Shown here piece after piece: positions 307-23,727 of a stretch of 24,371 nt of DNA. Numbering within the stretch: position 1 is the first letter of the stretch; every line of letters starts with the position of its first letter. Source of the DNA: a virus. Lineage: Duplodnaviria; Caudoviricetes. A program made the position numbers and the translations under genes. Below the pieces are notes generated by a model, which saw nothing but the letters and a program-made list of their open reading frames with translations, made no database searches and was not told the origin of the DNA. The stretch lies in IMG/VR virus record IMGVR_UViG_3300030372_002798, positions 1 to 24,371 of that record. The stretch is one strand, 5' to 3'.

Positions 307-3285
307 TCATTTCTTAAGTTCCTCTATTTCTGCTTTAAGTTCTTTTACAGCTTCTACTAATACACCAACCATTTTTTCATAGTTTACTGTTTTGAAGTCT
401 TTTTCATCTCCGTCACGCCCAAACTCTCCAACTCTTAAAGTTTTCACAGAAACTACTTCTGGTAATACTTCTTCAACTTCTTGTGCAATTAATCCAATAT
501 CGTGTTGTCCTTTTCTTGATGTAGCAGTCCAGTCAAACTCAACACCTCTTAATTTCATTACTTTATCAAGTCCATTTTCTATCGTAGAAATGTTTTCTTT
601 TAATTGTCTATCAGATGGAGAACTACTAAACGCTACAACATCTCCTTTAAAATGTGCTTCTCCAGCATTTGTAATTTTTGCAACTGCATCTGCTGTGCCA
701 CTATCTAAATCATTATCAGTACCAGTAATAACTCTTACTTCTCCAGTACCATTGTTAGTTTCATCTGGACATAAATAAACATGATTTACACCAGTTAATG
801 ATACTCCATTAGCAACTGCTGAATTTGTATCATCATCTAATACTAATCTGTTTGTACCATTACTTCTTCCGTGTATATCATCTACATCAAAAACACCAGA
901 AACATTAAGAGTTCCGTCTATATCTGTGTTATCTAAATTAGTAGTTCCGTCTACATCAATATTTCCAGATATATCTAAAGACGACCCTTCTATTTCTCCG
1001 TGTACTAATACTCCTCTACTTCCAGCACTTCCAATTTCTGTTCTTTGTCCTACATCACACATAATAAATGGCGCTCCTGCTCCAGAATCCCATATTTGAA
1101 ATACACCACTACCAGATACATCAAAACTTGATTCTCCAGCTACTGTTATATTTACACCGTCATTCCAAGCAATGTTGGAAGAAAAAGTAGCCATATTTAA
1201 AGTAGCACTACCAGAATTTGAGCCACCAGTTAAATTTGTACCAGCTACAACTGCAGTAATATCTCCAGTGTTAGCAGTAGCTCCACTTGCTATTCCGTCA
1301 AGTTTGCTTCCGTCAGAAGCAATATCTCTTCCGTCTACTGTTCCAGATAATGTTAAATTACCAGAACTATCTATTTTAAATCTTTCAGTCATTGTGATAG
1401 CTGTATCAATAGTACCAGTAGTTGCTCCAGCATTGAAGAACTTTAATTCATTATCAAAGTATAATGCTCCTCTTGTAAAGTTTGAATTGTCAGCACTATT
1501 AATAAATTGTTCATCTGCATCTGTTTTTGGTTTTACTCCATATCCAAATACATTTGCTCCAGATGAATATGCCATACCCCAAGTATTTAAATAATCTTTA
1601 TTAGCATCTCCATAACCAATAGCATAAGCTACTGCTCCATTAGTTGCTGCTGGATTAGATACAATACCTGGACTTGTTGTATCCTCACACTCTACATATA
1701 GTCTTTCGTATGGAGTACCAGCTGCGATACCAACATAATTGTTACCAGCATCAACTTTAAGCATATTAGCTTGTCCATTAGATTCTACCCTAAAGTCTGC
1801 ATCATGGCTTCCTTCATTAACTACTAATCCATATTGTAATACTGAATTACCAGAAACTGCTAAATCTCCTACAACACTTGCTCCACTTGTATCAATGTGC
1901 ATACGCTCAGTACCACTTGAACTACCTGCTGTTGCTCCAGTTCTAAAACTTAACACACTACCAGATTGGAATATTGCACTTGTAGATGTACCAGTAAAAA
2001 ATATTCTTTCTGAATTTGATGTAGTACTTCCGTCTGCATCCATATTTATACCATTGGCATTGTCTCCACTTACTGTTAATAAATGACCATTAAAAGTAAG
2101 ATTGGCTTCTGCGTTCATAGCGTCTGTTCCAGTAGCAGTTACAATTCTGTTATTGCTACCATTAGACATAAAGTCTGATACATCTACACTTATAGTAGTG
2201 CTTGATATATCTATACCAGTTCCTGCTGTATCAAGTGTTGCGTCTAACTGCGTTTGAATATTAGAAGTTACTCCGTCTACATAATTTAATTCTGCTTTGG
2301 TAGCAGTAATACCTAAGTTAGTAATCGCATTGGCTTGTTGTGTGCCAGTTAATCCTTGTGAAGCTGTATCTACTCTTAGTCTATTGCCTAATGAAGTAGA
2401 TGTTGTTGTTGCGAAGTTAGCATCATCTCCTAAAGCTGCTGCTAATTCGTCTAATGTATTTAAAGCACTTGGTGCTGAATTAACAATACCAGCTACTTCT
2501 GCGTCTACATACGCTTTAATACTTTGTTGTGATGCTGCCGCTGTTGCACTATTAGAAGCCATATTGTCTTCGTCTTTTAAAGTTAGTTGAGTGTTGGCAG
2601 TCATATCGTCTACGACTAAATCTATTGTACCATCTCCATCCTGATAGGTAGCTGCAATTCTTGTTTCAGTATTTGATGAGAACATTGCTCCTACGATGTC
2701 CTGTACTTGTTCAGTTGATAATTGTGTATTATCATTTGCAGTCATGTCATCAACTACAAGGTCTATTGTACCATCGCCATCTTCATAAGTGGCACTAATA
2801 CGAGTTTCGGTGTTGCTTGAGAACATAGCCCCTACTATATCTTGGACTTGCTCAGTAGATAATTGAGTGTTGTCGTTAGCAGTCATATCATCAACTACCA
2901 AGTCAATAGTTCCATCTCCATCTTGGTATGAAGCACTGATGCGTGTTTCGGTGTTAGAGGTAAACATAGCTCCAACAATATCTTGAACATTTTCTGTAGT
3001 AAGTTGAGTGTCAGTATCTAAATCATCTACAACTAAATCAATAGTTCCATCTGAATCTTGATAAGTAGCGGTAATTCTTGTTTCTGTATTGCTACTAAAC
3101 ATAGCTCCCACTATGTCTTGGACCGCTTCAGTATCCAATGAAGCACTACCACTTAAATCTACAATACTGCCATTATCATTGATATATAATTTATCAGCAC
3201 TTCTGTCAAACGCTAATTCTTTATCTGTAATATCACTGGTAGTAGGTGTACCACTACCAGCTTTAATCTTAATGGTATTCGCCAT
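307..3285 (-). CDS. Long fibre protein with C-terminal peptidase S74-type intramolecular chaperone
   Basis: 992 aa, rich in G/S/T/D/N. Fibre motif SAPSALNTLDELAAALGDDANFATT. C-terminal SDRQLKENI...GLIAQEVEEVLPEVV...VNYEKMVGVLVEAVKELKAEIEELK is the autocleaving chaperone signature. GGAG SD. Confidence 0.9.
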   Translation of the reverse strand: MANTIKIKAGSGTPTTSDITDKELAFDRSADKLYINDNGSIVDLSGSASLDTEAVQDIVGAMFSSNTETRITATYQDSDGTIDLVVDDLDTDTQLTTENVQDIVGAMFTSNTETRISASYQDGDGTIDLVVDDMTANDNTQLSTEQVQDIVGAMFSSNTETRISATYEDGDGTIDLVVDDMTANDNTQLSTEQVQDIVGAMFSSNTETRIAATYQDGDGTIDLVVDDMTANTQLTLKDEDNMASNSATAAASQQSIKAYVDAEVAGIVNSAPSALNTLDELAAALGDDANFATTTSTSLGNRLRVDTASQGLTGTQQANAITNLGITATKAELNYVDGVTSNIQTQLDATLDTAGTGIDISSTTISVDVSDFMSNGSNNRIVTATGTDAMNAEANLTFNGHLLTVSGDNANGINMDADGSTTSNSERIFFTGTSTSAIFQSGSVLSFRTGATAGSSSGTERMHIDTSGASVVGDLAVSGNSVLQYGLVVNEGSHDADFRVESNGQANMLKVDAGNNYVGIAAGTPYERLYVECEDTTSPGIVSNPAATNGAVAYAIGYGDANKDYLNTWGMAYSSGANVFGYGVKPKTDADEQFINSADNSNFTRGALYFDNELKFFNAGATTGTIDTAITMTERFKIDSSGNLTLSGTVDGRDIASDGSKLDGIASGATANTGDITAVVAGTNLTGGSNSGSATLNMATFSSNIAWNDGVNITVAGESSFDVSGSGVFQIWDSGAGAPFIMCDVGQRTEIGSAGSRGVLVHGEIEGSSLDISGNIDVDGTTNLDNTDIDGTLNVSGVFDVDDIHGRSNGTNRLVLDDDTNSAVANGVSLTGVNHVYLCPDETNNGTGEVRVITGTDNDLDSGTADAVAKITNAGEAHFKGDVVAFSSSPSDRQLKENISTIENGLDKVMKLRGVEFDWTATSRKGQHDIGLIAQEVEEVLPEVVSVKTLRVGEFGRDGDEKDFKTVNYEKMVGVLVEAVKELKAEIEELKK
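2584..3132 (-). repeat. Four tandem 45-47 aa intragenic repeats (TEQVQDIVGAMFSSNTETRISATYQDGDGTIDLVVDDMTANDNTQL)
   Basis: Directly visible in the translation, aa ~52-234, with periods 45, 47 and 47. Confidence 0.95.
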
Positions 3286-6020: not shown

Positions 6021-7340
6021 ATGAATAAAGTTCCAAAAGAATATCAATTTAAGAAGAAATGGTTTGAATATATGGGTTACGAGCCGCATCCAGGACAAGA
6101 AAAGATGCACTATCCAGAAAATCCAAACGCTTCCTTCTTTGTAAACATCTGTGGTAGAAGATATGGAAAGACTACCGCGGCGTATCGTGAAGCAGAATTT
6201 TATGCTGCACAACCAAATAAAAAGATTTGGCTTGTTGGATTATCATATAAGAAATCAAGACTTATGTTTCGTGAAGTATATGCAAACATGGTTAAGGGAA
6301 ACAAGAAAGATATTGTTGCTGCATCTGAAAAAGAACAGTATATAAGATTTGCTTGGGGGAGTACAGTAGAAGGAATGTCTGCAGACAATCCATCTTCTTT
6401 GCTTGGGGAGGGATTAGACTTGGTTATTATTGACGAAGCTGCAAAAATGCCAAGAAAGATTTGGGATATGTATTTATCTCCAACCTTATCTGACAAGAAA
6501 GGTAAAGCTATTTTTATTACTACTCCAAATGGATATAACTGGATTTATGATTTATATTTATTAGGTAAACAAGACCCTAAGTGGTATTCAACATCATCTC
6601 CAAGTTGGGAAAACTACCATGCGTTCCCAGATGGTATTAATGACGAGTTTCTACAAGAAAGAAAAAGAAATTTATCAAAAGAAATATTTGACCAAGAGTA
6701 TGGAGCGAAGTTTGCATCATTTCAAGGTAAGGTATATCCATTTGATAGAGACTTAGATGTTAAAAAGGTTGAGTACCAACCACATCTTCCAACTTATTGC
6801 ACTATTGACTTTGGCTATAGAATGCCAGCAGTTGTGTTTTTACAAACATATAGAAATAATGGTGTTTGGTATATAAATATAATTGACGAAATTATACATA
6901 AGAAAAATGTTGCTACAGAAACATTAGCACAAATGATTTTAGATAAAAATTATCCTATCCTTCGATACTATGGAGACCCAGCTGGATACAATGTACAAGG
7001 GCAAACTGGGATGGGAGATATAGAAATCTTTAAAAATTCCGGTATTAATGTTAGATTTAGGACTGATAAAGCAAGTAGAAACATTGCATCTTCTGTAAGT
7101 TATGTCAGAGGATTCTTTGAATCTGCTTCTGGAGACAGAAAAATATCAGTATCTGATAAATGTACTGGAATTATAGAAGATTTTGAAAACTACCGCTATC
7201 CAGAAGAAGTAGAAGGTAGAACTTTATCTAATGACCCAATTAAAGATGGGTTTTATGAACATGGTTGTGATGCGTTTAGATATTTTATAACTAATCGTTT
7301 CCCAATGGTAAACAACGAATTAATAAGGATTGCAAGATGA
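6021..7340 (+). CDS. terL: Terminase large subunit
   Basis: Walker A CGRRYGKT, Walker B LVIIDEAA, coupling motif ITTP, RNase H-like TIDFG, YYGDPAG and C-terminal HGCDAFRY. Confidence 0.95.
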   Translation: MNKVPKEYQFKKKWFEYMGYEPHPGQEKMHYPENPNASFFVNICGRRYGKTTAAYREAEFYAAQPNKKIWLVGLSYKKSRLMFREVYANMVKGNKKDIVAASEKEQYIRFAWGSTVEGMSADNPSSLLGEGLDLVIIDEAAKMPRKIWDMYLSPTLSDKKGKAIFITTPNGYNWIYDLYLLGKQDPKWYSTSSPSWENYHAFPDGINDEFLQERKRNLSKEIFDQEYGAKFASFQGKVYPFDRDLDVKKVEYQPHLPTYCTIDFGYRMPAVVFLQTYRNNGVWYINIIDEIIHKKNVATETLAQMILDKNYPILRYYGDPAGYNVQGQTGMGDIEIFKNSGINVRFRTDKASRNIASSVSYVRGFFESASGDRKISVSDKCTGIIEDFENYRYPEEVEGRTLSNDPIKDGFYEHGCDAFRYFITNRFPMVNNELIRIAR

Positions 7341-8713
7341 TATTAACGCCTCAAGAGATTATAAAAAAGTCTTTAAAAGAATTTAAACTTCAGTCAGTTT
7401 CTAATAAAAGAGAAGAAGTAATTAAGTATTTAGATTATTACACTGGAACAGAAACTAATAAATACATAGAAAACTATTTTGATACAGACGCATTTAGAGA
7501 AATACCTCAGTATTCTGCAAACATTACAAAGAAATTTATTAATAAGATGTCAAGGCTATATACTGTAGGAGCTAAAAGAAGCCCTAAAGGTGTTTACGAA
7601 GATATGACTATGAAAAAGAATGTAAAGATGAAACACATTGAAAAAATGACAAAATTGTTAGGTACTGTAGCAGTTGGAGTGTTTTATAAAGAAGAAGATG
7701 ACAAAAAATACTTTGAATATGTACCAGTTTACTATTTTATGCCTTTTTTTGACGACAATGATGTATTTAATCCTTACGCAATTACTTATCCTAACTTTAT
7801 GCCAGTAGATGATGCTTACAATAACGATAAAATGACTTATTCTTATTATGACCAAAAAAGATATATAAAATACGACCAAGAAGGTAATATCTTAGAAGAA
7901 ATAGCTAATGAAAGTGGAGTTTTTCCTTTTGTTTTCTTTCATAGAGAGGACCAAATAGATTCTTTCTTTGTTGAAGGAGCAAATGACATTATTTCTGCTA
8001 ACGAACATATTAATATCACTATGACAGAAATGCAATTAGGTTTAAGATACCAAATGTTTGGACAACCAGTTGCTTCTGGTATTATTGCAGACCAAAATAT
8101 TGCAAGAGCAGGGTCAAATGAGATTCTTATGCTTGGAGAAAATGGGAATTTTGACATTGTATCTCCAAAAGGCAACCTTGAGTCTGTTATTGAGAATATA
8201 AAGCTACAATTAGAGCTTGTAGCCCTTAATAACCACCTTTATATCACATTTTCTGATACTGGAGGCGAAGTTCCTTCTGGTATTGCCTTAAAAATTAAGG
8301 ATGTTGAAAGAATGGAAGACTATCAAGACGATAAAGAGATGTTTCGTATCTTTGAACACAAGATGTATAAGGTAGAAGAGGCTATTGCGTCTTATAATAG
8401 CATAAAACTACCAAAAACAGAAGATTTTATGATAGATTTCTATGATGTTGAGTATCCAATGACTACTCAAGATATGATTCTTCAAAATAACTTTGATTTA
8501 CAGAACAATTTGACTACACAAGCACACATTCTAATGAAAAACAACAAAGATTTAGATTTAGAGGCTGCAGTAGAGCAAATTGCACAAAATAAAGAGATAA
8601 ATCAGTTATTAGCAGGTAATTTTGAGCAAGAAGAAGAAAATGAAGAAGCCAAAGTCGAAAATGTAGAAGAAAATCAACAAGAAGAAGAAGATGAAGTTGT
8701 TTCTGACGATTGA
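7337..8713 (+). CDS. Portal protein
   Basis: 458 aa, ATGA-coupled to terL. N-terminal YLDYYTG, PFVFF, SGIALK motif of SPP1-like portals, acidic C-terminal tail. Confidence 0.85.
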   Translation: MILTPQEIIKKSLKEFKLQSVSNKREEVIKYLDYYTGTETNKYIENYFDTDAFREIPQYSANITKKFINKMSRLYTVGAKRSPKGVYEDMTMKKNVKMKHIEKMTKLLGTVAVGVFYKEEDDKKYFEYVPVYYFMPFFDDNDVFNPYAITYPNFMPVDDAYNNDKMTYSYYDQKRYIKYDQEGNILEEIANESGVFPFVFFHREDQIDSFFVEGANDIISANEHINITMTEMQLGLRYQMFGQPVASGIIADQNIARAGSNEILMLGENGNFDIVSPKGNLESVIENIKLQLELVALNNHLYITFSDTGGEVPSGIALKIKDVERMEDYQDDKEMFRIFEHKMYKVEEAIASYNSIKLPKTEDFMIDFYDVEYPMTTQDMILQNNFDLQNNLTTQAHILMKNNKDLDLEAAVEQIAQNKEINQLLAGNFEQEEENEEAKVENVEENQQEEEDEVVSDD

Positions 8714-9308
8714 TTTCGATTTTGACCCTTTAAAAAAGGCTTTGCCAAAACTTATGGTAAAGAGAATCAATGATGACATAGAAATAGTCAAAAAACAGAT
8801 AGAGAAAGGCTTAAAAACATCAAAAAGTCCAGTAACTGGTAAAATGTTTGCTCCTATAAGTGAAGTTACAAGAAAAGTAAGAAAAATTAGACGACAAACA
8901 AGAAAATCAAAAGATAGACCACTTGTAGCAACTGGAAGAATGGGCAGATTAAAGATTAAGAAGGCTACCAGACAAGGAAAGTTAGCTTTTTATGGATTTA
9001 TACAAATGGGAGCTGACTATGGACAGTATCATCTACAAGAACAAACAATTCAAACTAATTTTAGTGCAGTTGGTAGAGCAAGAAGCAAAAAAGAAAAAAT
9101 ACCAGGTGGCGAAAGAAAAACTATGAACAGAAAATCAACTTTTTTCAAAGTAAAAGGCAAAAAAGTTCCTGCAAGAATTTGGTTTGGAGAGCCTAAAAAT
9201 TATACTGGAAAGAAAAGTTTTCGTAGTTTTATGTTTGCAGTAAAGCGTAAATTGAAAGAAGGCAAAATTATAATTAAAAAACCTATTGGGAGTATTAGTC
9301 TTGGATAA
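8691..9308 (+). CDS. Virion morphogenesis protein (Mu gpG / P2 gpS-like)
   Basis: Basic 205 aa protein with the pattern SPVTGKMFAPISEVT...PLVATGRM...YGQYH...VPARIWFG. Follows the portal. Confidence 0.6.
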   Translation: MKLFLTIDFDFDPLKKALPKLMVKRINDDIEIVKKQIEKGLKTSKSPVTGKMFAPISEVTRKVRKIRRQTRKSKDRPLVATGRMGRLKIKKATRQGKLAFYGFIQMGADYGQYHLQEQTIQTNFSAVGRARSKKEKIPGGERKTMNRKSTFFKVKGKKVPARIWFGEPKNYTGKKSFRSFMFAVKRKLKEGKIIIKKPIGSISLG

Positions 9309-9546
9309 ATTAAAAGAATTATTAAATAAACTTTTTGAAAAAATAGAAGATGTTGAACAAATAGCAGTTCACAACAACAATTTGCTTGGGTTTATGTTAT
9401 CTAATAGAGCAAAAAGCGAAAAACCTAAATCTGCAGTATATTTTAATCCAGAAACTCACAAAATACTCGCTATACATTTGGATATGGAATTAATGGAATA
9501 TTTAGAGGAAAATAATATATCTTTGGATTCTTTTGGAGATGCTTAA
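9286..9546 (+). CDS. Hypothetical protein
   Basis: ORF overlapping the upstream gene end. The start may be the TTG at 9301 behind GGGAG. Confidence 0.55.
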   Translation: MGVLVLDKLKELLNKLFEKIEDVEQIAVHNNNLLGFMLSNRAKSEKPKSAVYFNPETHKILAIHLDMELMEYLEENNISLDSFGDA

Positions 9547-10097
9547 GAGTTCTTTTCTTCAAGCTTCTCAAGCTTTTGTAGCCACTCTTTTCTTTTTGTT
9601 TTCGTGTGTCTACCAGGTCCTAAAGGTTTTAACCCAACCTTCTTGGCACGACTTAGTAGTTTTTTGGATTCTGATTTCTGTTTATTCAACTTCTCTATTG
9701 GCGATTCTTTATTTTCTCCTAAGAGTTCTGTTATATCCTCTTCTACCTCAATAACATTCTCTATTTTTCTATGACCTTCTAAAAATCTTTCAAAAGGACT
9801 TTCTACTTTAACCTCAACATTTTTAATAAGCTTACCAGAGTGTTCTAATATTAATCTACCTGCTTGAACATTACCATTAATGGCTTCTTTGTACATAGAT
9901 TGTAATACAGAAGGTAGTTTTGCTCCAAACGACTGCATATAGGTTTGATACAAGGATTCAACAAACTCTTTATCGCTTAACCAGTTTGTTATAGTGTTTC
10001 TATGTACTCCAATCTCTTTAGAAATATCAACAAGAGTCATATCTGGATTATTAACATAGATAGTAGCAAACTCTGCTTGTTTCTTATTAAGATTCAT
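9543..10097 (-). CDS. HTH protein, probable terminase small subunit
   Basis: N-terminal LNKKQAEFA...TLVDISKEIGVHRNTITNW helix-turn-helix, then a helical segment with AINGNVQAGRLIL. Size and location near terL fit TerS. Confidence 0.65.
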   Translation of the reverse strand: MNLNKKQAEFATIYVNNPDMTLVDISKEIGVHRNTITNWLSDKEFVESLYQTYMQSFGAKLPSVLQSMYKEAINGNVQAGRLILEHSGKLIKNVEVKVESPFERFLEGHRKIENVIEVEEDITELLGENKESPIEKLNKQKSESKKLLSRAKKVGLKPLGPGRHTKTKRKEWLQKLEKLEEKNS

Positions 10098-11095: not shown

Positions 11096-11310
11096 ATGGT
11101 TTGAATTTACTTAGGCGAATTGTTTTGTGCAACCTTGCGAATTTTAATTTGCCTTTTTTGTGGAATGCGACATGTCTTGCTATCGGAATGCTCTATCCCT
11201 CCTATGCCATTTATTTTGATCAGGGCTTTTTGCATGTATTTCCGGCATCTTACCAAATATCTAAAATATAGCATGTTTCAATTTGACGATTTTGACACAT
11301 GATTGCTTTT

Positions 11311-11324
11311 TGTGATCTAGTGAA
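11311..11324 (+). repeat. TGTGATCTAGTGAA motif, left copy
   Basis: TGATCTAGTGAA recurs at 14588-14599. GATCTAGTGAA is inverted at 14396-14406. A one-mismatch copy lies at 14559-14572. Confidence 0.85.
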
Positions 11325-11499
11325 GCCCTTCCACAGTATGAATTTTGTCAAAAATGAGTGAGAGGTGAACAAGTGAAAAAAATCACAAATATTCACAATT
11401 AAAACTTCAACAAATTACAATCAAACTATCTTTGTCTTAGTATAGGTAATTAGAAAGGAAATCAAAGATTTCAACTATGACACATATATATAATATGTA

Positions 11500-11528
11500 T
11501 TGATATTGTATAGGTAATTCAATAGATT
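11500..11528 (+). promoter_or_regulatory. Sigma70-type promoter of the island operon
   Basis: TTGATA-N17-TAGATT. The spacer contains GTATAGGTAATT, which is repeated at 11440-11451. Confidence 0.6.
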
Positions 11529-11534
11529 GTTTTC

Positions 11535-11849
11535 ATGATAGCAAAGAAAAATAACCAACTATGGATGTCAAGCAAACTTGACACCATGAAAGTGAGTAAA
11601 AATATCATGAAAGCGACTTTTAAAAATACATTGATTCTATCTTTTGCCATGTGTTTCATTGGTATGGTTTTTTCCATAACTGATGTTGTATTGGTAATCA
11701 TAGAAGTTGGATTCAATACAATGAATCAAGAACAAATAGAAAGATTCACTTCTTCATATTTGCTTTTCGTTTCATTTGGGATAATTGGGATAATTGCTCA
11801 ATTCTCAATTATCAATATTAACAATAAACAAATAGAGGTAAAGAGATGA
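11535..11849 (+). CDS. Two-TM membrane protein
   Basis: Hydrophobic segments LILSFAMCFIGMVFSITDVVLVII and YLLFVSFGIIGIIAQFSII. ATGA-coupled to the amidoligase. Start uncertain. Confidence 0.7.
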   Translation: MIAKKNNQLWMSSKLDTMKVSKNIMKATFKNTLILSFAMCFIGMVFSITDVVLVIIEVGFNTMNQEQIERFTSSYLLFVSFGIIGIIAQFSIININNKQIEVKR

Positions 11850-13459
11850 GTAAAATCAAAATATATGAAAATCCATCACATTCATTTGATGCTCAAAAAG
11901 TGAAGGACATTGTGTATCAAGATTCCCTTGATAACACTGGAAATACAAATGTTCTTTTGTATGGCAATTACACATACAATGAAGATGAAAAGGTTGGACA
12001 ATTCGAAAAGGCATTTTTGTTTGACAATGACCAAACAAGCAACAATCTTGTTTGTATAGGAGACAAAAGCCAAGTTGTAAGATTCACAACTTTGGATTGG
12101 GGGGAAGGAGAATTTTTCTCAAATCCAAATTCATACAATTCATCACATGATTGGTTGCCATTTCAAGATGCAACTGAATATTCTGATGGGCAATACTTTG
12201 TGTTGAGAAATGAAGTCCTTCACATTCATGATTTGGAAATGTATGTTCCTTTGAATTTTGGCAAAGGATTTAGACAAATTCATTTTTGTAAATCATGCAA
12301 TGAACACTACAAAAGAAGATGTAAATGTTTGAATAAATCAAGACCATCTGGACATAGTCCGAATCAAGTTTACTTTTGTGATGTTGAAAAAGGGTTTGAT
12401 GTTAATTCAATTAAATCATTGAATCACTTGACAACAAACACAAAAACATTTCTTGGCTTTGAGTGGGAATTAGGATTTGAAAATCCAAATTTATCAACAA
12501 ATGAAATTGCATTTGCATTGTATAGACACATTAAAAATAAAGATGTGAATTTGTTCAATTTGTTTGGCGATAACATGAGAGATGGAAGCATTGACAACTA
12601 CTATTCAAAAGGAAGTGAGATTGGAAGCAATGTGATGAGTTTTGATTACTATCAAAAATATGCAACTATGATTGAAGAAGTTTCTGAATTTGCAAATTCA
12701 AGAGACATCTTTGGAAGCAATTTAGGATTTCACATCAACATTTCAAGAGATTCATTTGTTGATGAAAATGAAATTTTGAACTTTCTTGTTCTTACTCAAA
12801 CATCAGTTGAAATATTAGTGAAATTGAGTGGTAGAAGGGATGAAGGAAGCAATATGAATAATTATTGTCCTATTGATATTCCTTTTGGTTTTAGAGATGA
12901 AGAAGTTGAAAAAATAAATCGTGGATTGACTTCATTGGCAATGAATAAAAAATTGGCATCTAAAATCTTTAATGGAAATGCGATAGGCGATAAAATGACA
13001 TGGATGGCATTTCATAAAAATGCAATGATAGAGTTTAGATTGCCTTCTTCATCAACTGATAATGAAGGACATGCTTTTTCAAAAACATGTAGACATTTGG
13101 AATTAGTGTTTGCAATGGTGGAATATTCAAGACAACACACAATCGATAAAATGCGTTTTGATATGTTCTTGGATTGGATTCATGAAAATGAACACTTTGT
13201 AAATATTTACAATGCGATTGTTTGCAATGATGACATCATGGAATTAATTGAACAAGCAACTTCTTTTGCAAAGCAATTATCAATCGCAAAGCCAAACTTG
13301 GAATTTGATTTTGACAATGACAATACAAGTGAAATGGAAAATGAATTTGGGTTGTGGATGGATAAATGCAAAAATGCAAAAGAAGTTGATGATTCAACAA
13401 AGCAAATCAAAGATAAATACAATAAAAAAGTAAAAGATAGAAAAGAAAGGAAGGTGTAA
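11846..13459 (+). CDS. Putative amidoligase (COOH-NH2 ligase, Amidoligase_2-like)
   Basis: Catalytic pattern FLGFEWE, DGSI, SEIGS, GFHINISR, IEFRLP. Cys cluster CKSCNEHYKRRCKC precedes the domain. Adjacent to a GATase. Confidence 0.85.
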   Translation: MSKIKIYENPSHSFDAQKVKDIVYQDSLDNTGNTNVLLYGNYTYNEDEKVGQFEKAFLFDNDQTSNNLVCIGDKSQVVRFTTLDWGEGEFFSNPNSYNSSHDWLPFQDATEYSDGQYFVLRNEVLHIHDLEMYVPLNFGKGFRQIHFCKSCNEHYKRRCKCLNKSRPSGHSPNQVYFCDVEKGFDVNSIKSLNHLTTNTKTFLGFEWELGFENPNLSTNEIAFALYRHIKNKDVNLFNLFGDNMRDGSIDNYYSKGSEIGSNVMSFDYYQKYATMIEEVSEFANSRDIFGSNLGFHINISRDSFVDENEILNFLVLTQTSVEILVKLSGRRDEGSNMNNYCPIDIPFGFRDEEVEKINRGLTSLAMNKKLASKIFNGNAIGDKMTWMAFHKNAMIEFRLPSSSTDNEGHAFSKTCRHLELVFAMVEYSRQHTIDKMRFDMFLDWIHENEHFVNIYNAIVCNDDIMELIEQATSFAKQLSIAKPNLEFDFDNDNTSEMENEFGLWMDKCKNAKEVDDSTKQIKDKYNKKVKDRKERKV

Positions 13460-13461
13460 AA

Positions 13462-14073
13462 ATGTGTATAGCAATTTTAAAGCCTAAAAAAGCAACAATA
13501 GATGTTGCAACATTAAATGATTGTTGGGATGCCAATTCACATGGTGGTGGATTTGCATTTGCAATGAAAGGAAAATTGAATGTGTTCAAATCGTTGGAAA
13601 AAGATTTGTTCATTGATACTTTGATGGAATCAATGGCAAATCATAATGCAAACTTTTTGATTCATATGAGAATCGCAACAAGTGGAATAAAAGACATGAT
13701 GATTAATTGCCATCCTTTTAGGATTGACAATAAGAATGTTTTTTGTCATAATGGTGTGATTCACAATGTCAATTCAGATGATGACATTTCAGATACAAGA
13801 TATTTTAACAAAGATATTTTGCAACAAATGAAATTCAATTTAAAAAATAAATCACATATTAAATTAATTGAAGGCTTCATTGGTAATGGCAACAAATTGA
13901 TTTTCCTAAATTCAAAAGGGGAATTTACCATTGCAAATGAAAAGGTTGGAAGTTGGCAAAATGGTGTATGGTTTTCAAATCTCAATCATTCATGTGATTT
14001 GGAAGACGATTATCAATCATGGCAAAATAACTTGTTCACAATTAAAGACTATCAAAAGAAGATGAAGTTGTAA
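13462..14073 (+). CDS. Class II (Ntn) glutamine amidotransferase
   Basis: N-terminal nucleophile Cys2 (MCIAI), NSHGGG, HMRIATSG, NCHPF, HNG, SDT and WFSN motifs. Confidence 0.92.
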   Translation: MCIAILKPKKATIDVATLNDCWDANSHGGGFAFAMKGKLNVFKSLEKDLFIDTLMESMANHNANFLIHMRIATSGIKDMMINCHPFRIDNKNVFCHNGVIHNVNSDDDISDTRYFNKDILQQMKFNLKNKSHIKLIEGFIGNGNKLIFLNSKGEFTIANEKVGSWQNGVWFSNLNHSCDLEDDYQSWQNNLFTIKDYQKKMKL

Positions 14074-14090
14074 GAACTTCACATTGCCAA

Positions 14091-14131
14091 AAAAAGATGC
14101 TCAATCATTCATTTGGTTGGGCATTTTTTTT
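14091..14131 (+). terminator. Rho-independent (probably bidirectional) terminator
   Basis: A-run, then stem ATGCTCAATCA / TGGTTGGGCAT with G-U pairs and a 6-nt loop, then a T-run. Lies just after the GATase stop. Confidence 0.8.
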
Positions 14132-14208
14132 GCCCAAAATCAATGAATAAAGACCAAAAACACCAAAAAACACTAATACCAAAGTTCACATAAAAGCATT
14201 TTAAAGCG

Positions 14209-14352
14209 TTTTAAAGGCATTTTAACGCCTTGATTTTTTGCCAAATCCATCAAAATCCATCAAAATCAATGAAAAATCATTAATACAAATGTTCATCTAA
14301 TCAAAAGAAAATCGATTTTAAAGGCATTTTAACGCCTTGATTTTTTGCCAAA
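14209..14352. repeat. 37-bp perfect direct repeat, two copies 107 bp apart
   Basis: TTTTAAAGGCATTTTAACGCCTTGATTTTTTGCCAAA at 14209-14245 and 14316-14352, with internal inverted AAGGC/GCCTT. Confidence 0.9.
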
Positions 14353-14395
14353 CACAACAAAAACGGTGGTTTTGATAAATATTCACATTTTTTGA

Positions 14396-14689
14396 TTCAC
14401 TAGATCCTTAAAGGATTTTGATCCTTCACTTTTTTGGAGTTTGATCAGGAATCGATTTTCTAGATCAATTCAAATTCATGTTTCAAAATTCAAAAATTCA
14501 AAATTTAAAAATCAAAAATTCAAAATTTAAAAATTGCAAAAATATCATTTTCACAAAATGTGATTTAGTGAAATTCAAATTTTTTTTTGATCTAGTGAAA
14601 GCTGCAACTTGAAAAATTTTTTTCATGCGTCAAATTTTGCCCAAATTTTTGCCAATTTTCAAAAAAATTTTCAAATTTCATTTCCCTAG
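14396..14689. repeat. Cluster of GATC/CTAG sites and GATCTAG motifs
   Basis: GATC at 14403, 14420, 14443, 14463 and 14589. CTAG at 14400, 14460, 14592 and 14686. Confidence 0.85.
14482..14543. repeat. A-tract array including a 22-bp tandem repeat
   Basis: CAAAAATTCAAAATTTAAAAAT at 14491-14512 and 14513-14534, within (C/T)AAAA(A)TT units. Confidence 0.85.
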
Positions 14690-14776
14690 TTTCTCATAAT
14701 GGAACATTTTTGACTTTAAAAAACATGATTGCAGCTCTTATTTGCAGCTTTTTTTCACTTGGCAGCACTTTTTTTA

Positions 14777-14806
14777 TTGACTTTGTATCCCCCCTATATA
14801 TAGATT
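14777..14806 (+). promoter_or_regulatory. Sigma70-type early promoter
   Basis: TTGACT-N18-TAGATT preceded by T-tracts. Shares TTGAnnTTGTAT...ATAGATTGT with the promoter at 11500. Confidence 0.55.
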
Positions 14807-14815
14807 GTATACATT

Positions 14816-15160
14816 ATGACTATTAACAAGAGAGAGGTAAGAGAAGCAATCCAATTAGTTGAATGGCATAGAGAATATCTAATGCAGATTGGGTTGCATC
14901 CAACACAAACCAAGAAAAGAAATGTGTATTTACAAACCAATAAATATAACAAGTTTGGAATTGAAGATATAAAATTCTTTTCTTATAAAGCATCTAAACA
15001 AAATCAAAAGGTATGTAAAGAGTTGAAGTTGTTTATTCGCTTATTATCTAATGTTGATAGTATATGTGAAGTTGAGTTAAGTAAAAAGAGTAGAATAAAT
15101 TGGAATCAATTTAAAAAGAAAAAAGAGGTTGAAGATGAAGCAAGTGATAATATATCCTAA
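14816..15160 (+). CDS. Hypothetical early protein
   Basis: 114 aa ORF directly after the promoter, with no SD. Confidence 0.6.
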   Translation: MTINKREVREAIQLVEWHREYLMQIGLHPTQTKKRNVYLQTNKYNKFGIEDIKFFSYKASKQNQKVCKELKLFIRLLSNVDSICEVELSKKSRINWNQFKKKKEVEDEASDNIS

Positions 15161-17215: not shown

Positions 17216-17482
17216 ATGTGGTTTAAGAAAAAGAAAGAAGTAAAAACTTTAAAAAGTGGTAGAAGTAGGAAAGCCAATGGTAAAACTGCAAAAGTGTTAA
17301 ATCATTTGATGGAAAATGGTAGCATTACATCAATGGAGGCATTTGAAACATACAATGCGACAAGGTTAAGTGCTATTATATATAACCTGCGACAACAAGG
17401 TCATGATATTTTGACACATGAAACACTTATAAGCAACGACAGTGGTTATACTTATGCTACCTACTACTTGGTTGAAAACTAA
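17216..17482 (+). CDS. Winged helix-turn-helix DNA-binding protein
   Basis: KVLNHLMENGSITSMEAFETYNATRLSAIIYNLRQQGHDI is a common phage wHTH pattern. Confidence 0.8.
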   Translation: MWFKKKKEVKTLKSGRSRKANGKTAKVLNHLMENGSITSMEAFETYNATRLSAIIYNLRQQGHDILTHETLISNDSGYTYATYYLVEN

Positions 17483-17784: not shown

Positions 17785-17946
17785 ATGGAAAAGAAAGTTG
17801 GAGTGCAAATTGATAAGTCGTTATATACAGACTTATCTTTAATAGCAAAAAGTCAGTATCGTAGCACTGCTGCGTTAGTTAGAATGGTTTTAGGTAAATT
17901 CGTAAAAGATAATAATGGGCTTATAAATGAGGAGGACAAGCAATGA
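17785..17946 (+). CDS. Ribbon-helix-helix (Arc/CopG-like) regulator (not in ORF track)
   Basis: AAGGAG SD. MEKKVGVQIDKSLYTDLSLIAKSQYRSTAALVRMVLGKFV shows an alternating beta strand, helix, RS turn and helix. ATGA-coupled to erf. Confidence 0.7.
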   Translation: MEKKVGVQIDKSLYTDLSLIAKSQYRSTAALVRMVLGKFVKDNNGLINEEDKQ

Positions 17947-20614: not shown

Positions 20615-21855
20615 GTGGATTAATACTTGAGAATCAAGTAGTGTGTTGCCCAAGATGTAATAGTAGTAATGTAAAGAAAAAAGGATTTAGGCATAACAGA
20701 GGGCAAAAAATACAAAGATGGAAGTGTAATTCTTGTGGTTATAGCACATCTGACCCTTTATATCTTGATAAAGATGTTATTATCGAAAATGTAAGATTAG
20801 CAAAACAAAAACAAAATGCACAAGATAGAAATAGAATTGCTAATAAATCTTTTAGGGAACATGCCAGATTAGATAATGCCTTAGAAGAATACAATAAAAA
20901 CTTAATTAAAGTTCTTGAAAAACATACAATACCAAAACTGACACATGTTAAAACAAAAAGTAGCAAGGCGGTCGGTGTTATACAAATATCAGATACACAC
21001 TTTAATGAAGAAGTAAATCTACCAAACAATAAATATAATTTTGAAGTAGCATCAAAAAGATTAAGAACTTATATCAGAAAGGCTAAGGTTTACTTAAAAG
21101 CAATAGGTGTAAAAGAAGTTTTAATTGCTATGACTGGAGACTTAATGAACTCTGATAGAAGGTTAGATGAAATGTTTGCACAATCTACCAATCGTTCTAA
21201 TGCAACATTTATATCAGTGCAGTTGTTAAAGCAAGTAGTTGAAGATGTCAGAACAGACTTTAAGGTTTCTCTTGCTTGTATTACTGGTAATGAAAGCAGG
21301 GTAAAAGATGAGATAGGTTGGGATGATTACATTGCAAGTGATAACTACGACTTTACTATTTACAATATTTTAAGATTCTTATATCGTGATACAGATGTAG
21401 ATTTTATTCTCTCAAAGGATGCAACAGAAGTTGTAGTGAATTTAGCAGGTATGAATCTACTTATGATACATGGACATGGGAGTATTAAAGCAAAACACGA
21501 AACATCAATAACACAAATTAAAGGTAGATATTCAAGTGGTAGGGATGTTAAGATTGATTTTGTTATATCTGGACATATACACTCTGCAAGAGTTGGAGAT
21601 ACCTATGGAAGAAGTTCTTCTCTTGTTGGAGCAAATGCTTATTCAGAAAAAAACCTTAATTTAGAAGGAAGGGCAAGTCAAAATGTTTATGTATTTTATA
21701 AAAATCAAACCATTGATGGTATTAAAATAGATTTACAAAATTATGACAAAAAGGGCTATGATATATCTAAAGAACTTCAAGAGTATGCGTACAACTCTAA
21801 ATCAGACGCTAAGTTAAAACAAGGTAAAACAATATTAAAAATAATAACAGTATGA
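20611..21855 (+). CDS. Zn-ribbon plus calcineurin-like metallophosphoesterase
   Basis: N-terminal CPRC...KKG...QRWKCNSC, a coiled coil, then SDTH, TGD, GNE, HGH and GHIH motifs. Confidence 0.85.
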   Translation: MSGLILENQVVCCPRCNSSNVKKKGFRHNRGQKIQRWKCNSCGYSTSDPLYLDKDVIIENVRLAKQKQNAQDRNRIANKSFREHARLDNALEEYNKNLIKVLEKHTIPKLTHVKTKSSKAVGVIQISDTHFNEEVNLPNNKYNFEVASKRLRTYIRKAKVYLKAIGVKEVLIAMTGDLMNSDRRLDEMFAQSTNRSNATFISVQLLKQVVEDVRTDFKVSLACITGNESRVKDEIGWDDYIASDNYDFTIYNILRFLYRDTDVDFILSKDATEVVVNLAGMNLLMIHGHGSIKAKHETSITQIKGRYSSGRDVKIDFVISGHIHSARVGDTYGRSSSLVGANAYSEKNLNLEGRASQNVYVFYKNQTIDGIKIDLQNYDKKGYDISKELQEYAYNSKSDAKLKQGKTILKIITV

Positions 21856-22859
21856 CACATGGCAGCTTATTTAGTGGTATAGGTGGTATAGATTTGGGTT
21901 TTGAGATGGCAGGTATAAAAACATCTTGGACATGTGAAATTGATGAGTGGTGTCATAAGTTATTAAAAGAAAGGTTTCCAAATGCAAAACATTATAAAGA
22001 TATTATGGGAATTAATAAAAACTCTTTGCAAAGAGTTGATATTATTAGTGGAGGTTTTCCTTGCCAAGATATATCTACAGCAGGGAAAGGAGAAGGATTA
22101 GATGGAAAGAGGAGTGGTCTTTGGTTTGAAATGTTTAGAATTATTAGGGAATTACGACCAAAATGGATTCTTATTGAAAATGTCGCAAATCTCACTAATA
22201 AAGGAGGAGTTAGAGTATTGCAAGACCTTGCCGAAGCAGGGTATGATGCAGAATGGCAAATTATATCAGCAAGAGATGTTGGAGCAAAACACATCAGAAA
22301 AAGACTCTGGATTGTCGGATATAGACAAGACATACAACACGCCCTTAAACAGAGATTGGAGAGACACATACACAGCAGTAAGATGCAGACTGGGGAAGAA
22401 AGACGAGAGGTTGTACAACAATGGTCTACCGAAGAAGTTGTTTATAGAAGAAATAATGAGTTATCCAACACCAGTAGCAACAAACATTCAAAGCCCAGCT
22501 CCCAATCAAGTAGAAAGAACAAAAGGGGGAAGTTTTATAATAAGAAGAAAAGCAAAGCCACACATGACTTATGGAGCGAGACTACAAGATGTGATAATGT
22601 ATCTACATCAACAACTTCCCAAGAAAGAACAAATCAAAATGTTAAAAGACCAAATAGAATACTTGGAGAATTTAGACTTAAATCCTTTGAAAGGCTTAAA
22701 AATGAATCCAGATTGGATAGAGTGGCTTATGGGTTATCCCAAAAAGTGGACAAATATTACGACAGAGTTAAAGGACTTGGAAATGGAGTCGTACCACAAA
22801 TCCCATTTCTTATCGGAAAAAGAATCAAACACTTAAATAATATATTGGAGGAAAAATGA
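21852..22859 (+). CDS. DNA (cytosine-5) methyltransferase, alpha-like chain lacking motif IX
   Basis: Motif I LFSGIGG, IV GGFPCQDIS, VI ENV, VIII RKRLWIVG and X GLGNGVVP. Confidence 0.93.
   Translation: MTHGSLFSGIGGIDLGFEMAGIKTSWTCEIDEWCHKLLKERFPNAKHYKDIMGINKNSLQRVDIISGGFPCQDISTAGKGEGLDGKRSGLWFEMFRIIRELRPKWILIENVANLTNKGGVRVLQDLAEAGYDAEWQIISARDVGAKHIRKRLWIVGYRQDIQHALKQRLERHIHSSKMQTGEERREVVQQWSTEEVVYRRNNELSNTSSNKHSKPSSQSSRKNKRGKFYNKKKSKATHDLWSETTRCDNVSTSTTSQERTNQNVKRPNRILGEFRLKSFERLKNESRLDRVAYGLSQKVDKYYDRVKGLGNGVVPQIPFLIGKRIKHLNNILEEK
22102..22836 (+). CDS. Nested +1-frame ORF, putative beta chain of the C5 methyltransferase (motif IX, possibly TRD)
   Basis: 244 aa open frame fully inside the MTase gene in AT-rich DNA. 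AGGAG lies 9 nt before the ATG. Contains YPTP and MNPDWIEWLMGYP (motif IX-like). Confidence 0.8.
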   Translation: MERGVVFGLKCLELLGNYDQNGFLLKMSQISLIKEELEYCKTLPKQGMMQNGKLYQQEMLEQNTSEKDSGLSDIDKTYNTPLNRDWRDTYTAVRCRLGKKDERLYNNGLPKKLFIEEIMSYPTPVATNIQSPAPNQVERTKGGSFIIRRKAKPHMTYGARLQDVIMYLHQQLPKKEQIKMLKDQIEYLENLDLNPLKGLKMNPDWIEWLMGYPKKWTNITTELKDLEMESYHKSHFLSEKESNT

Positions 22860-23205: not shown

Positions 23206-23727
23206 ATGAAAACAACATATATTAGCACAAGATTAAATAGATATACATTTGAAGTAGACCAAGTTAGACATTGGGTTGAATCAAGATGTCAAGGTAAAAC
23301 TCTTAACCTTTTTGCAGGTAAAGTAAAATTAAGGTTAGATGAATTTAGAGTTGATTTAAATGAAGATATGTTAGCAGATGAATATTGTGATGCCTATGAA
23401 TTTATAGAAAAATGCGACACATTTTATGATACCATACTTCTTGACCCACCTTATGCTTATCGAAAGGCTATGGAAATGTATGAAGGTAGATATACTACCA
23501 AGTTTAAAAAAATAGCAGATTTGATACATGAAAAAAACCTAACTAAAAGAGTTATAAGTTTTGGTTATCATTCTGCTTTTATGGGTAGAGGTAGATTATT
23601 TGACTTAGAGGAGTTGTGTGTCTTTGGACATGGAGGCTCACAACATTGTACAATAGCAATAGTAGAGGAGAAATTGGTAGATGGACAACAATACAAAGAT
23701 ACTATATTTGCTGCAATCGAAAATTAA
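23206..23727 (+). CDS. Small amino-methyltransferase (N6-adenine/N4-cytosine type)
   Basis: SAM-binding LNLFAG followed by catalytic LDPPY. Confidence 0.8.
   Translation: MKTTYISTRLNRYTFEVDQVRHWVESRCQGKTLNLFAGKVKLRLDEFRVDLNEDMLADEYCDAYEFIEKCDTFYDTILLDPPYAYRKAMEMYEGRYTTKFKKIADLIHEKNLTKRVISFGYHSAFMGRGRLFDLEELCVFGHGGSQHCTIAIVEEKLVDGQQYKDTIFAAIEN

Follow-up and report, generated by a model that had tools for sequence, protein, structure and literature searches.

Introduction

The first-step-transfer region of phage T5 is described as holding iss and an IRC-spacer-IRD/IRD'-spacer-IRC' repeat pair, in which near-identical DnaA-box inverted repeats lie at positions 6022-6152 and 9332-9462, 3.3 kb apart (bioRxiv 10.1101/866236). 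The T5 injection-stop mechanism is still open, and the idea that DnaA serves as an anchor is still a proposal. In our own scan of the T5 record, DnaA boxes were found at 6121-6194 and 9510. For BF23 and T5, it is reported that the first-injected repeat must be free of restriction sites (PMC10644984). The pac site of phage P1 is described as lying inside pacA, where 161 bp hold seven TGATCA/G hexamers, with host Dam as the methylase (PMC10028697), and a 3,795-bp terminal repeat is reported for the Microbacterium phage Triscuit (PMC7302621; MH047631). Here, we describe a stretch of 24,371 nt, referred to as the window, which is the full IMG/VR record IMGVR_UViG_3300030372_002798 and covers 24.4 kb of a tailed phage of ~35 kb. 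In the window, GATC and CTAG are confined to the two non-coding flanks of an amidoligase operon, and we ask how these flanks compare with the systems above.

The close relatives of the window are uncultured contigs of 33.6-37.1 kb. Our main comparison set comprises 13 close genomes with both flanks, namely the window itself (W), G001, L026, G008, G009, G002, L019, L010, G003, G004, G005, G006 and G007; the near-copies L024, L025, L013, L027, L028, L006 and L009 were left out, and L008, L021, L023 and L029, short loci lacking both flanks or the methyltransferase region, stand outside the set. Only the first 35.3 kb of G001 were used and the last 4.7 kb, judged chimeric, were dropped: G001:35337-40030 contains 8 GATC as well as an additional capsid gene (52%).

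The architecture of the window is most like the paired repeat regions around the pre-early genes of T5, yet the phage fails T5 membership. In both phages, two repeat-rich non-coding tracts ~3.3 kb apart share motifs, flank variable genes, lie near a genome end (a likely one in the window) and adjoin terminase genes, and in a sister clade of the window (G004-G007) both tracts carry DnaA boxes. Unlike T5, the window phage is 35 kb in size, its large terminase subunit (TerL) falls outside the T5 clade, and its repeats measure 10-20 nt instead of 131 nt, with one DnaA box per flank or none. No PHROGs or Pfam matches to T5 dmp, A1 or A2 were found in the window block, which holds three other genes. 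The window gives no clear sign of a long terminal repeat or of injection in two steps.

The initial annotation had also invoked P1 pac, and seven clustered GATC near a terminase gene do recall that site. However, only two of the seven fit the hexamer, and the sites span 3.4 kb outside the gene of the small terminase subunit (TerS), in two clusters 3.1 kb apart. The flanks of 8 of the 13 genomes are free of GATC, including those of G002 and L019, whose TerS is 93% identical. The comparison with P1 pac therefore fails.

Results and discussion

GATC and CTAG persist only in the flanks of the amidoligase operon

GATC is found 7 times in the window (11218, 11314, 14403, 14420, 14443, 14463 and 14589) against 82.8 expected, and CTAG 5 times (11317, 14400, 14460, 14592 and 14686) against 59.0 expected. 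All 12 sites lie inside the non-coding gaps 11107-11535 and 14073-14816, which make up 4.8% of the window; the distribution read by eye in the initial annotation was thus exact, down to its coordinates. If the sites were placed independently, the probability of such confinement would be 6e-10 for GATC (7/7) and 3e-7 for CTAG (5/5), values that are overstated because four GATC/CTAG pairs overlap. The three genes between the flanks, referred to as island genes, contain no GATC (10.8 expected), and neither word occurs in the other intergenic DNA of the window, a small sample of 763 nt. Across 19 open reading frames (ORFs), Asp ahead of a codon starting with C is never encoded by GAT (0/21), whereas GAT is used for 277 of 376 Asp residues otherwise, which shows that GATC is actively avoided by codon choice, as had been proposed.

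Other words are avoided in the window too (observed/expected: ACGT 0/24, GGCC 0/14, GCGC 1/16, GAACC 0/14), and these, unlike GATC and CTAG, are avoided in the flanks as well. The genome-wide purge of several words looks like strong restriction pressure. Since the window branch split from G001/G002, ~9.9 new GATC would be expected at 14,303 aligned core positions and none has arisen. The purge is therefore continuing, and something local retains the flank sites, in agreement with the earlier claim that they are deliberately kept. Across the 13 genomes, the observed/expected ratio of leftover avoided words is 0.24 in the flanks, 0.10 in the island genes and 0.04 in the core. Taken together, the confinement of GATC and CTAG to the flanks is a real, selected feature. 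As a method, leftovers of purged restriction sites can flag cis-acting signals and chromosome ends in uncultured phages.

The two flanks share repeats

The features of the region are as follows.

6021-7340, facing TerS and opposite to the capsid/tail genes: TerL
9543..10097, minus strand: TerS with an N-terminal helix-turn-helix (profile searches)
11115..11132, plus strand: conserved block upstream of the TerS-side operon (exact 18-mer in 13 IMG/VR stretches, alignment)
11153..11208, plus strand: bipartite signal TTTTGTGGAATG..ATG/TCT..TATCC(G/C)C, conserved in close relatives, with a candidate terminase cut at 11174/11175 (slash)
11215..11224, plus strand: left copy of TTTGATCAGG (repeat search)
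11313..11324, plus strand: left copy of TGATCTAGTGAA, the spacer variant TCT of TGA-NNN-AGTGAA (repeat search and comparison of relatives)
11366..11377, plus strand: TGAACAAGTGAA, a copy of TGA-NNN-AGTGAA that reads TGAGCAAGTGAA in relatives (comparison of relatives)
11500..11528, plus strand: candidate sigma-70-like promoter of the island operon (consensus match only)
11535..11849, plus strand: membrane-type protein of 104 aa, no family (profile searches)
11846..13459, plus strand: Amidoligase_2 (COOH-NH2 ligase) family protein of 537 aa (Pfam matches of the family, Atlas)
13462..14073, plus strand: class II glutamine amidotransferase (GATase)-like protein of 203 aa (phrog_25883, E 6e-15, below curated cut-offs)
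14097..14131, plus strand: hairpin and T-run, probable terminator of the island operon (invariant alignment columns; not listed by the terminator scan)
14209-14255 and 14316-14362, plus strand: direct repeat of 47 nt (repeat search)
14396..14467, no strand: right cluster with inverted GATCTAGTGAA, GATC 14420, TTTGATCAGG at 14440 and a partial copy at 14456-14467 (repeat search)
14483..14543, plus strand: A-tract repeats of CAAAAATT type, common to G001 and L026 (alignment)
14561..14599, plus strand: right copies of TGATTTAGTGAA (14561) and TGATCTAGTGAA (14588) (repeat search)
14686..14689, no strand: lone CTAG, a window-specific change within a block read otherwise by relatives
14777..14806, plus strand: conserved early promoter TTGACT..C-run..TAGATT, the right limit of the module (alignment of relatives)

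The repeats reported for the fused motif TGATCTAGTGAA were recovered: it is found at 11313 and 14588, with an inverted copy at 14396-14407 (an 11-mer match, 1 mismatch over 12), a variant at 14561 and the partial copy, and TTTGATCAGG is a direct repeat present in the left (11215) and right (14440) flank. The TGATCTAGTGAA-type motif covers 4 of the 7 GATC and 4 of the 5 CTAG (partial copy counted), and two further GATC belong to GATCAGG, which G001 and L026 likewise have in both flanks. The fused GATCTAG represents one spacer version of the element TGA-NNN-AGTGAA, which six relatives keep with other spacers. Counted from the candidate cut, this element lies at +128..+191 in the window, G001, L026, G002, L019, L010 and L023 and is missing in 8 of 15 rows; in each of these six relatives TGAGCAAGTGAA occurs once in the left flank, and in G001 and L026 the element recurs, inverted, in the right flank. 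The window matches the element 5 times, 4 of them in the flanks, against 0.58 by chance. Compared with these relatives, the TGATCTAGTGAA-type element has multiplied in the window, where four copies are exact and a further one is near-exact. Conservation of the motif, a check suggested at the outset, thus extends to the element and not to its GATCTAG letters.

Within a phage, the left and right flanks share 14.8 9-mers, compared with 4.7 between phages (14 pairs; 0/100,000 permutations), a statistic that is inflated by kinship. When L026 and L011 are compared, a 17-mer is seen to have changed in the left and the right flank alike. Folding of the flank DNA is unremarkable (z -1.2 and +1.2). The 16-mer TTTGTGATCTAGTGAA is also present at L196:4001-4016 (and in L197, L204, L209 and L217), in the TerS-side gap of phages with TerL of 66-70%; 5 of its 22 IMG/VR matches belong to this one distant GATC-tolerant lineage, apparently left of its cut-like signal, and the other 17 are unrelated.

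A candidate chromosome end at the left flank

The conserved block at 11115..11132 may be a late promoter or a terminase-binding region. The bipartite signal that follows it is also visible by eye in relatives with TerL 54-70% identical, and relatives diverge sharply from 11177 onward. Two metagenome contigs, L018 and L029, begin at the equivalent of 11175 (+0) and a third, L020, at +9 (3 of the 13 found with the amidoligase). Under a uniform null, the probability of these starts is 0.002-0.004, and it is 0.002 for three of five nearby contig starts to fall within 10 nt of 11174/11175. L018, L029 and L020 lack a shared upstream block, whereas L021 has one, as expected of a graph-branch break. 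From these data we infer a terminase cut, and hence the left chromosome end, at 11174/11175. The proposed check for read starts, made here on contig ends, thus gave 3 of 13 metagenome contigs but 0 of 7 IMG/VR loci at or near the candidate cut, and right-hand ends scatter. The module is probably the chromosome end that enters first; both promoters point inward, so that it would enter and be read first. TerL, a probable portal and two further genes (6021-9546) face TerS, opposite to the capsid/tail genes, and this arrangement is kept in relatives.

Proposed paired border signals of a lead module

We tentatively favour the reading that the GATC and CTAG letters belong to signals paired across the two borders of a lead module, which likely occupies the first-entering end. 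The borders of the 3.6-kb amidoligase module would carry candidate protein-binding signals that control its entry or first transcription, as proposed for the repeat pair of T5. The module would enter and be expressed first, and its products might remodel the envelope against superinfection, as has been hypothesised for such genes. A single factor may bind both borders. TerS is an improbable candidate, having been rejected as the reader of the changing motif because its recognition helix is nearly invariant; more probable are a host protein, which would be DnaA in the sister clade, or a phage regulator that evolves fast. The GATC/CTAG letters would be lineage-specific instead of an obligatory switch, within a signal worth the restriction risk, and proteins covering the sites, or the methyltransferase that the phage itself encodes, could aid their survival.

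The requirement for site-free leading DNA in BF23 and T5 fits the empty island genes, and as sites at the leading end would be costly, it argues that the retained ones do something. Of the suggestion that both module boundaries are marked, the paired, co-varying borders stand, the left one beside a likely physical end, and the terminal repeat is not supported. The letters themselves do not appear to be essential, as flank GATC is absent from 8 of the 13 genomes and the window is the only CTAG-avoiding genome with flank CTAG.

In G004-G007, each flank carries one DnaA-type box, TTATCCACA, the only two in each record, and these flanks are free of GATC. Boxes at +106..+140 and -310..-339 are found in L005, L008 and L031; the GATC motifs of the window lie at +139 and -326..-386. 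A small, abundant family that is unrelated to T5, and in which DnaA boxes and GATC motifs replace each other at matching positions, lends itself to comparison with T5.

Several observations weigh against the border-signal reading. The flanks of the window lack a consensus DnaA box, and the words shared by the flanks may stem from functionless gene conversion between them. In the window, the two 12-mers lie almost equally far (187/189 nt) from the two promoters, but this fails in two relatives checked by eye. Most contigs continue across 11174/11175, and none of 7 IMG/VR loci begins there. The terminase clade mixes long-repeat (Triscuit) and circularly permuted phages, so that the packaging mode is not fixed by the tree. 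Furthermore, the link between flank GATC and a methyltransferase, described below, would be unexplained if the GATC letters were merely incidental.

A DnaA consensus scan of the window gave matches at or below chance. DnaA-like words with 1 mismatch number 9 in the AT-rich flanks against 3.8 by length share and were not used as evidence. A CRP/FNR-type operator, scanned for with its consensus, was rejected since counts of inverted half-sites in the window were no better than chance (15 vs 17.1 and 4 vs 3.6). The only CRP-like site of the window with <=1 mismatch (9/10) is at 11372-11387 in the left flank, and its spacer length varies in relatives. In G005 and L008/L031, an operator-like palindrome, CCGACT-N4-AGTCGG, lies beside the DnaA box in both flanks, and more distant relatives have two DnaA-type boxes ~200 nt upstream of TerS (L103:14017-14068; L105:5318-5329).

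A two-frame methyltransferase accompanies flank GATC

The right part of the window encodes a two-frame methyltransferase:

21852..22859, plus strand: C5 cytosine methyltransferase, alpha frame (profile searches)
22102..22836, plus strand: overlapping beta frame with modular PTP-type units (ORF and profile comparison)

Both frames are open in W, G001, L025, L026, L014, L027 and L015. GATC is present in both flanks of five of the 13 genomes (W, G001, L026, G008 and G009), whereas both flanks of the other eight (G002, L019, L010, G003, G004, G005, G006 and G007) lack it, and the two-frame methyltransferase is encoded in all five of the former and in none of the latter. One might therefore speculate that border GATC carries a mark that is recognised during packaging or entry, as at P1 pac, and that is likely set by the phage C5 methyltransferase, or else by a Dam-like enzyme of the host, with enzyme-less lineages using DnaA boxes or other words. 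We regard such a methylation-gated signal as unlikely, although several findings agree with it besides the perfect match between carriers and flank GATC. In G009, whose core tolerates GATC, the word occurs 12 times in the flanks where 2.0 are expected (p 1.5e-6) and once in the island genes where 8.4 are expected, and in G008 the flanks hold 6 against 1.4. GATC is tolerated by every one of 11 further loci that have the closest beta frames (observed/expected 0.47-0.98), as opposed to 25 of 43 loci of the TerL family (p 0.01, with rows that are not independent). In W, G001, L026 and L014, a GATC lies at +39..+43 from the candidate cut, and in G001 and L026 three flank GATC are the only ones.

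On the other hand, the carrier pattern needs only one gain and one loss (trees of 9 and 8 of the 13 rows). The core of the window purges GATC despite an enzyme that is 92.5% identical to that of G001 (the neighbouring exonuclease is 94% identical), which argues against simple protection. The more distant carriers G026, G027 and G029 have 1-2 GATC in the TerS-side gap and no cluster, packaging in the relatives whose TerS is 93% identical does without GATC, and the CTAG sites are window-specific. Simple re-accumulation of GATC after the gain of a protective methyltransferase was likewise rejected for the core, which still purges the word. If a methyl mark is real, the phage C5 methyltransferase is a better candidate for its writer than host Dam, which would suggest a role beyond anti-restriction for orphan phage C5 methyltransferases. 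The broader proposal that widespread small marine phages use interchangeable border signals for a first module, either DnaA boxes or, in another clade, GATC methylated by the modular two-frame enzyme of the phage as an epigenetic gate for entry or packaging on a word purged elsewhere in the genome, is one that we hold to be distinctly unlikely.

A beta chain nested in the other frame of the alpha gene has been described for the two-frame C5 methyltransferase M.EcoHK31I (PMC2836561). The beta frame of the window is likewise open inside the alpha gene but carries swappable repeat units. These PTP-type units of 40-50 aa are gained, lost and swapped between phages (including L157-L167), possibly giving a multispecific enzyme, and are probably target-recognition units. 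One motif of the enzyme carries the label motif IX. In G002, L010 and L019, the two-frame gene is replaced by another C5-methyltransferase-like gene of 201 aa, between the exonuclease and single-stranded DNA-binding protein (SSB) genes, and CCGG is 2-4x over-represented in these genomes, hinting at the target of this gene. At a second slot (window 23206-23727; G001 21684-22220), close relatives differ in their methyltransferase-like genes, and some have none.

Less probable readings: near-neutral churn, a terminal repeat or a cassette

Alternatively, the GATCTAG spacer might have arisen once and been copied between repeats, or have recombined in from a GATC-tolerant lineage, and simply be tolerated, in which case the flanks would be an ordinary genome-end region. 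We consider this to be rather improbable. The flanks are the fastest-changing DNA, leftover avoided words are more frequent in them than in the core (ratios given above), one repeated motif accounts for most of the sites, and TTTGTGATCTAGTGAA is shared with the TerS-side gap of a distant GATC-tolerant lineage. However, whatever purges the core could act on even one such site, and the equally fast-evolving island genes are devoid of GATC. Moreover, positions recur across lineages, and the sixfold excess in G009 needs positive retention.

The initial annotation proposed a terminal repeat or first-injected segment of ~3.3 kb, and a direct terminal repeat of 3.3-3.6 kb with both clusters as terminase cut signals, in the manner of SRL/SRR of T7, would explain why two contigs, L018 (3168 nt) and L020 (3042 nt), contain nothing but the block. 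In a tree of 19 TerL rows, the family groups with actinophage terminases (98/97), apart from T5; AnnaSerena, under its cluster label, was among the phages of this comparison. Triscuit is among the nearest isolate terminases (30%), the length of its repeat is close to that of the module, and both its borders read ..ATG/ from the outside in, as does the candidate cut, a weak likeness of three letters. The borders of T5 lack ATG/, and unlike in a Triscuit-type genome, the depth over the window module is not doubled. Depth was estimated crudely from the contigs of four metagenome runs (X1-X4), whose DNA may or may not come from virions; X1 may be the run that yielded the window. In X1, it is 12.7 over the module against 10.7-13.6 elsewhere (12.5 for a contig across the right flank), and for a related strain in X3/X4 it is 52.5 vs 54.1 and 11 vs 10.3. 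Only one strain in X2 shows an increase (220 vs 152-165, 1.35x). Right-hand contig ends, in addition, scatter at 63, 230 and 262 nt past the terminator. The coverage check thus lends no clear support to the proposed repeat, which we judge to be quite improbable. A 479-nt contig over the left flank in X1 (11112-11590) has a depth of 25.6, compared with 12.7 adjoining and 19.1 and 10.4 upstream, and graph breaks around it match two strains exactly; this may reflect a short end repeat or a hidden third strain. Repeats of marine phages are reported to average ~450 bp (PMC7111524).

Finally, a role of the sites as decoys for restriction enzymes, or in the recombination of a mobile cassette, also raised initially, is highly improbable: the module does diverge faster than the core (71-74% nt identity in aligned parts vs 87%) and has the sharp left edge at 11177, but all 13 close genomes have it, in one orientation, no recombinase or integrase bar Erf is found among 44 proteins (the window being ~24 of 35 kb), and decoys would not account for the DnaA boxes or other words that occupy these positions in other lineages.

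Genes of the module and of the remaining window

In all 13 close genomes, the amidoligase and GATase genes sit between the TerS-side genes and the early genes, and the left signal lies 3.4-4.2 kb from the early promoter. The name amidoligase, given in the initial annotation, holds: 3 of 11 family members match Amidoligase_2 (PF12224) in Pfam, the window's own protein not among them, and the window protein reaches an Atlas score of 0.93 with 205 shared features. The promoter scan that gave the candidate island promoter returned 20 matches in total, compared with 21.3 in shuffles, i.e. no excess. Phage cassettes with an amidoligase and a glutamine amidotransferase are described as changing peptidoglycan, hypothetically to prevent superinfection (PMC5498523). 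The window module also combines these two enzymes but, in contrast to those cassettes, is reduced to them and a membrane protein, lies at the likely leading end and is TpA-poor.

The TpA deficit extends over 11100-14800 (rho 0.44 vs 0.86), where the DNA is CA/TG-rich, and TpA is below the core value in 13/13 genomes. It reaches synonymous codons, with 36 TTG and 11 TTA codons for Leu in the window module, a preference that is reversed elsewhere. One candidate idea is that entering DNA would in this way evade AT-binding silencers.

The window further encodes a tail fibre, capsid, Erf, DnaD-like and RusA-like proteins, an exonuclease and two methyltransferase genes, along with TerL and TerS, an 88-aa winged-helix protein (17216-17482) and a 53-aa protein (17785-17946). 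No close TerL relative was found in cellular genomes and protein clusters gave no names that would point to a host; no isolate carrying the window's amidoligase was found. A GATase scan across viral contigs returned no match, no solved structure was matched by sequence, and an Rfam scan gave nothing above threshold. Among titles and abstract openings, a coverage that leaves out most subscription journals, we found no paper on this phage family or pattern. The best-matching public run for the window is a marine metagenome, and no RNA run containing it was listed. The tail-fibre gene contains four repeats of 141 nt at 2594-3151.

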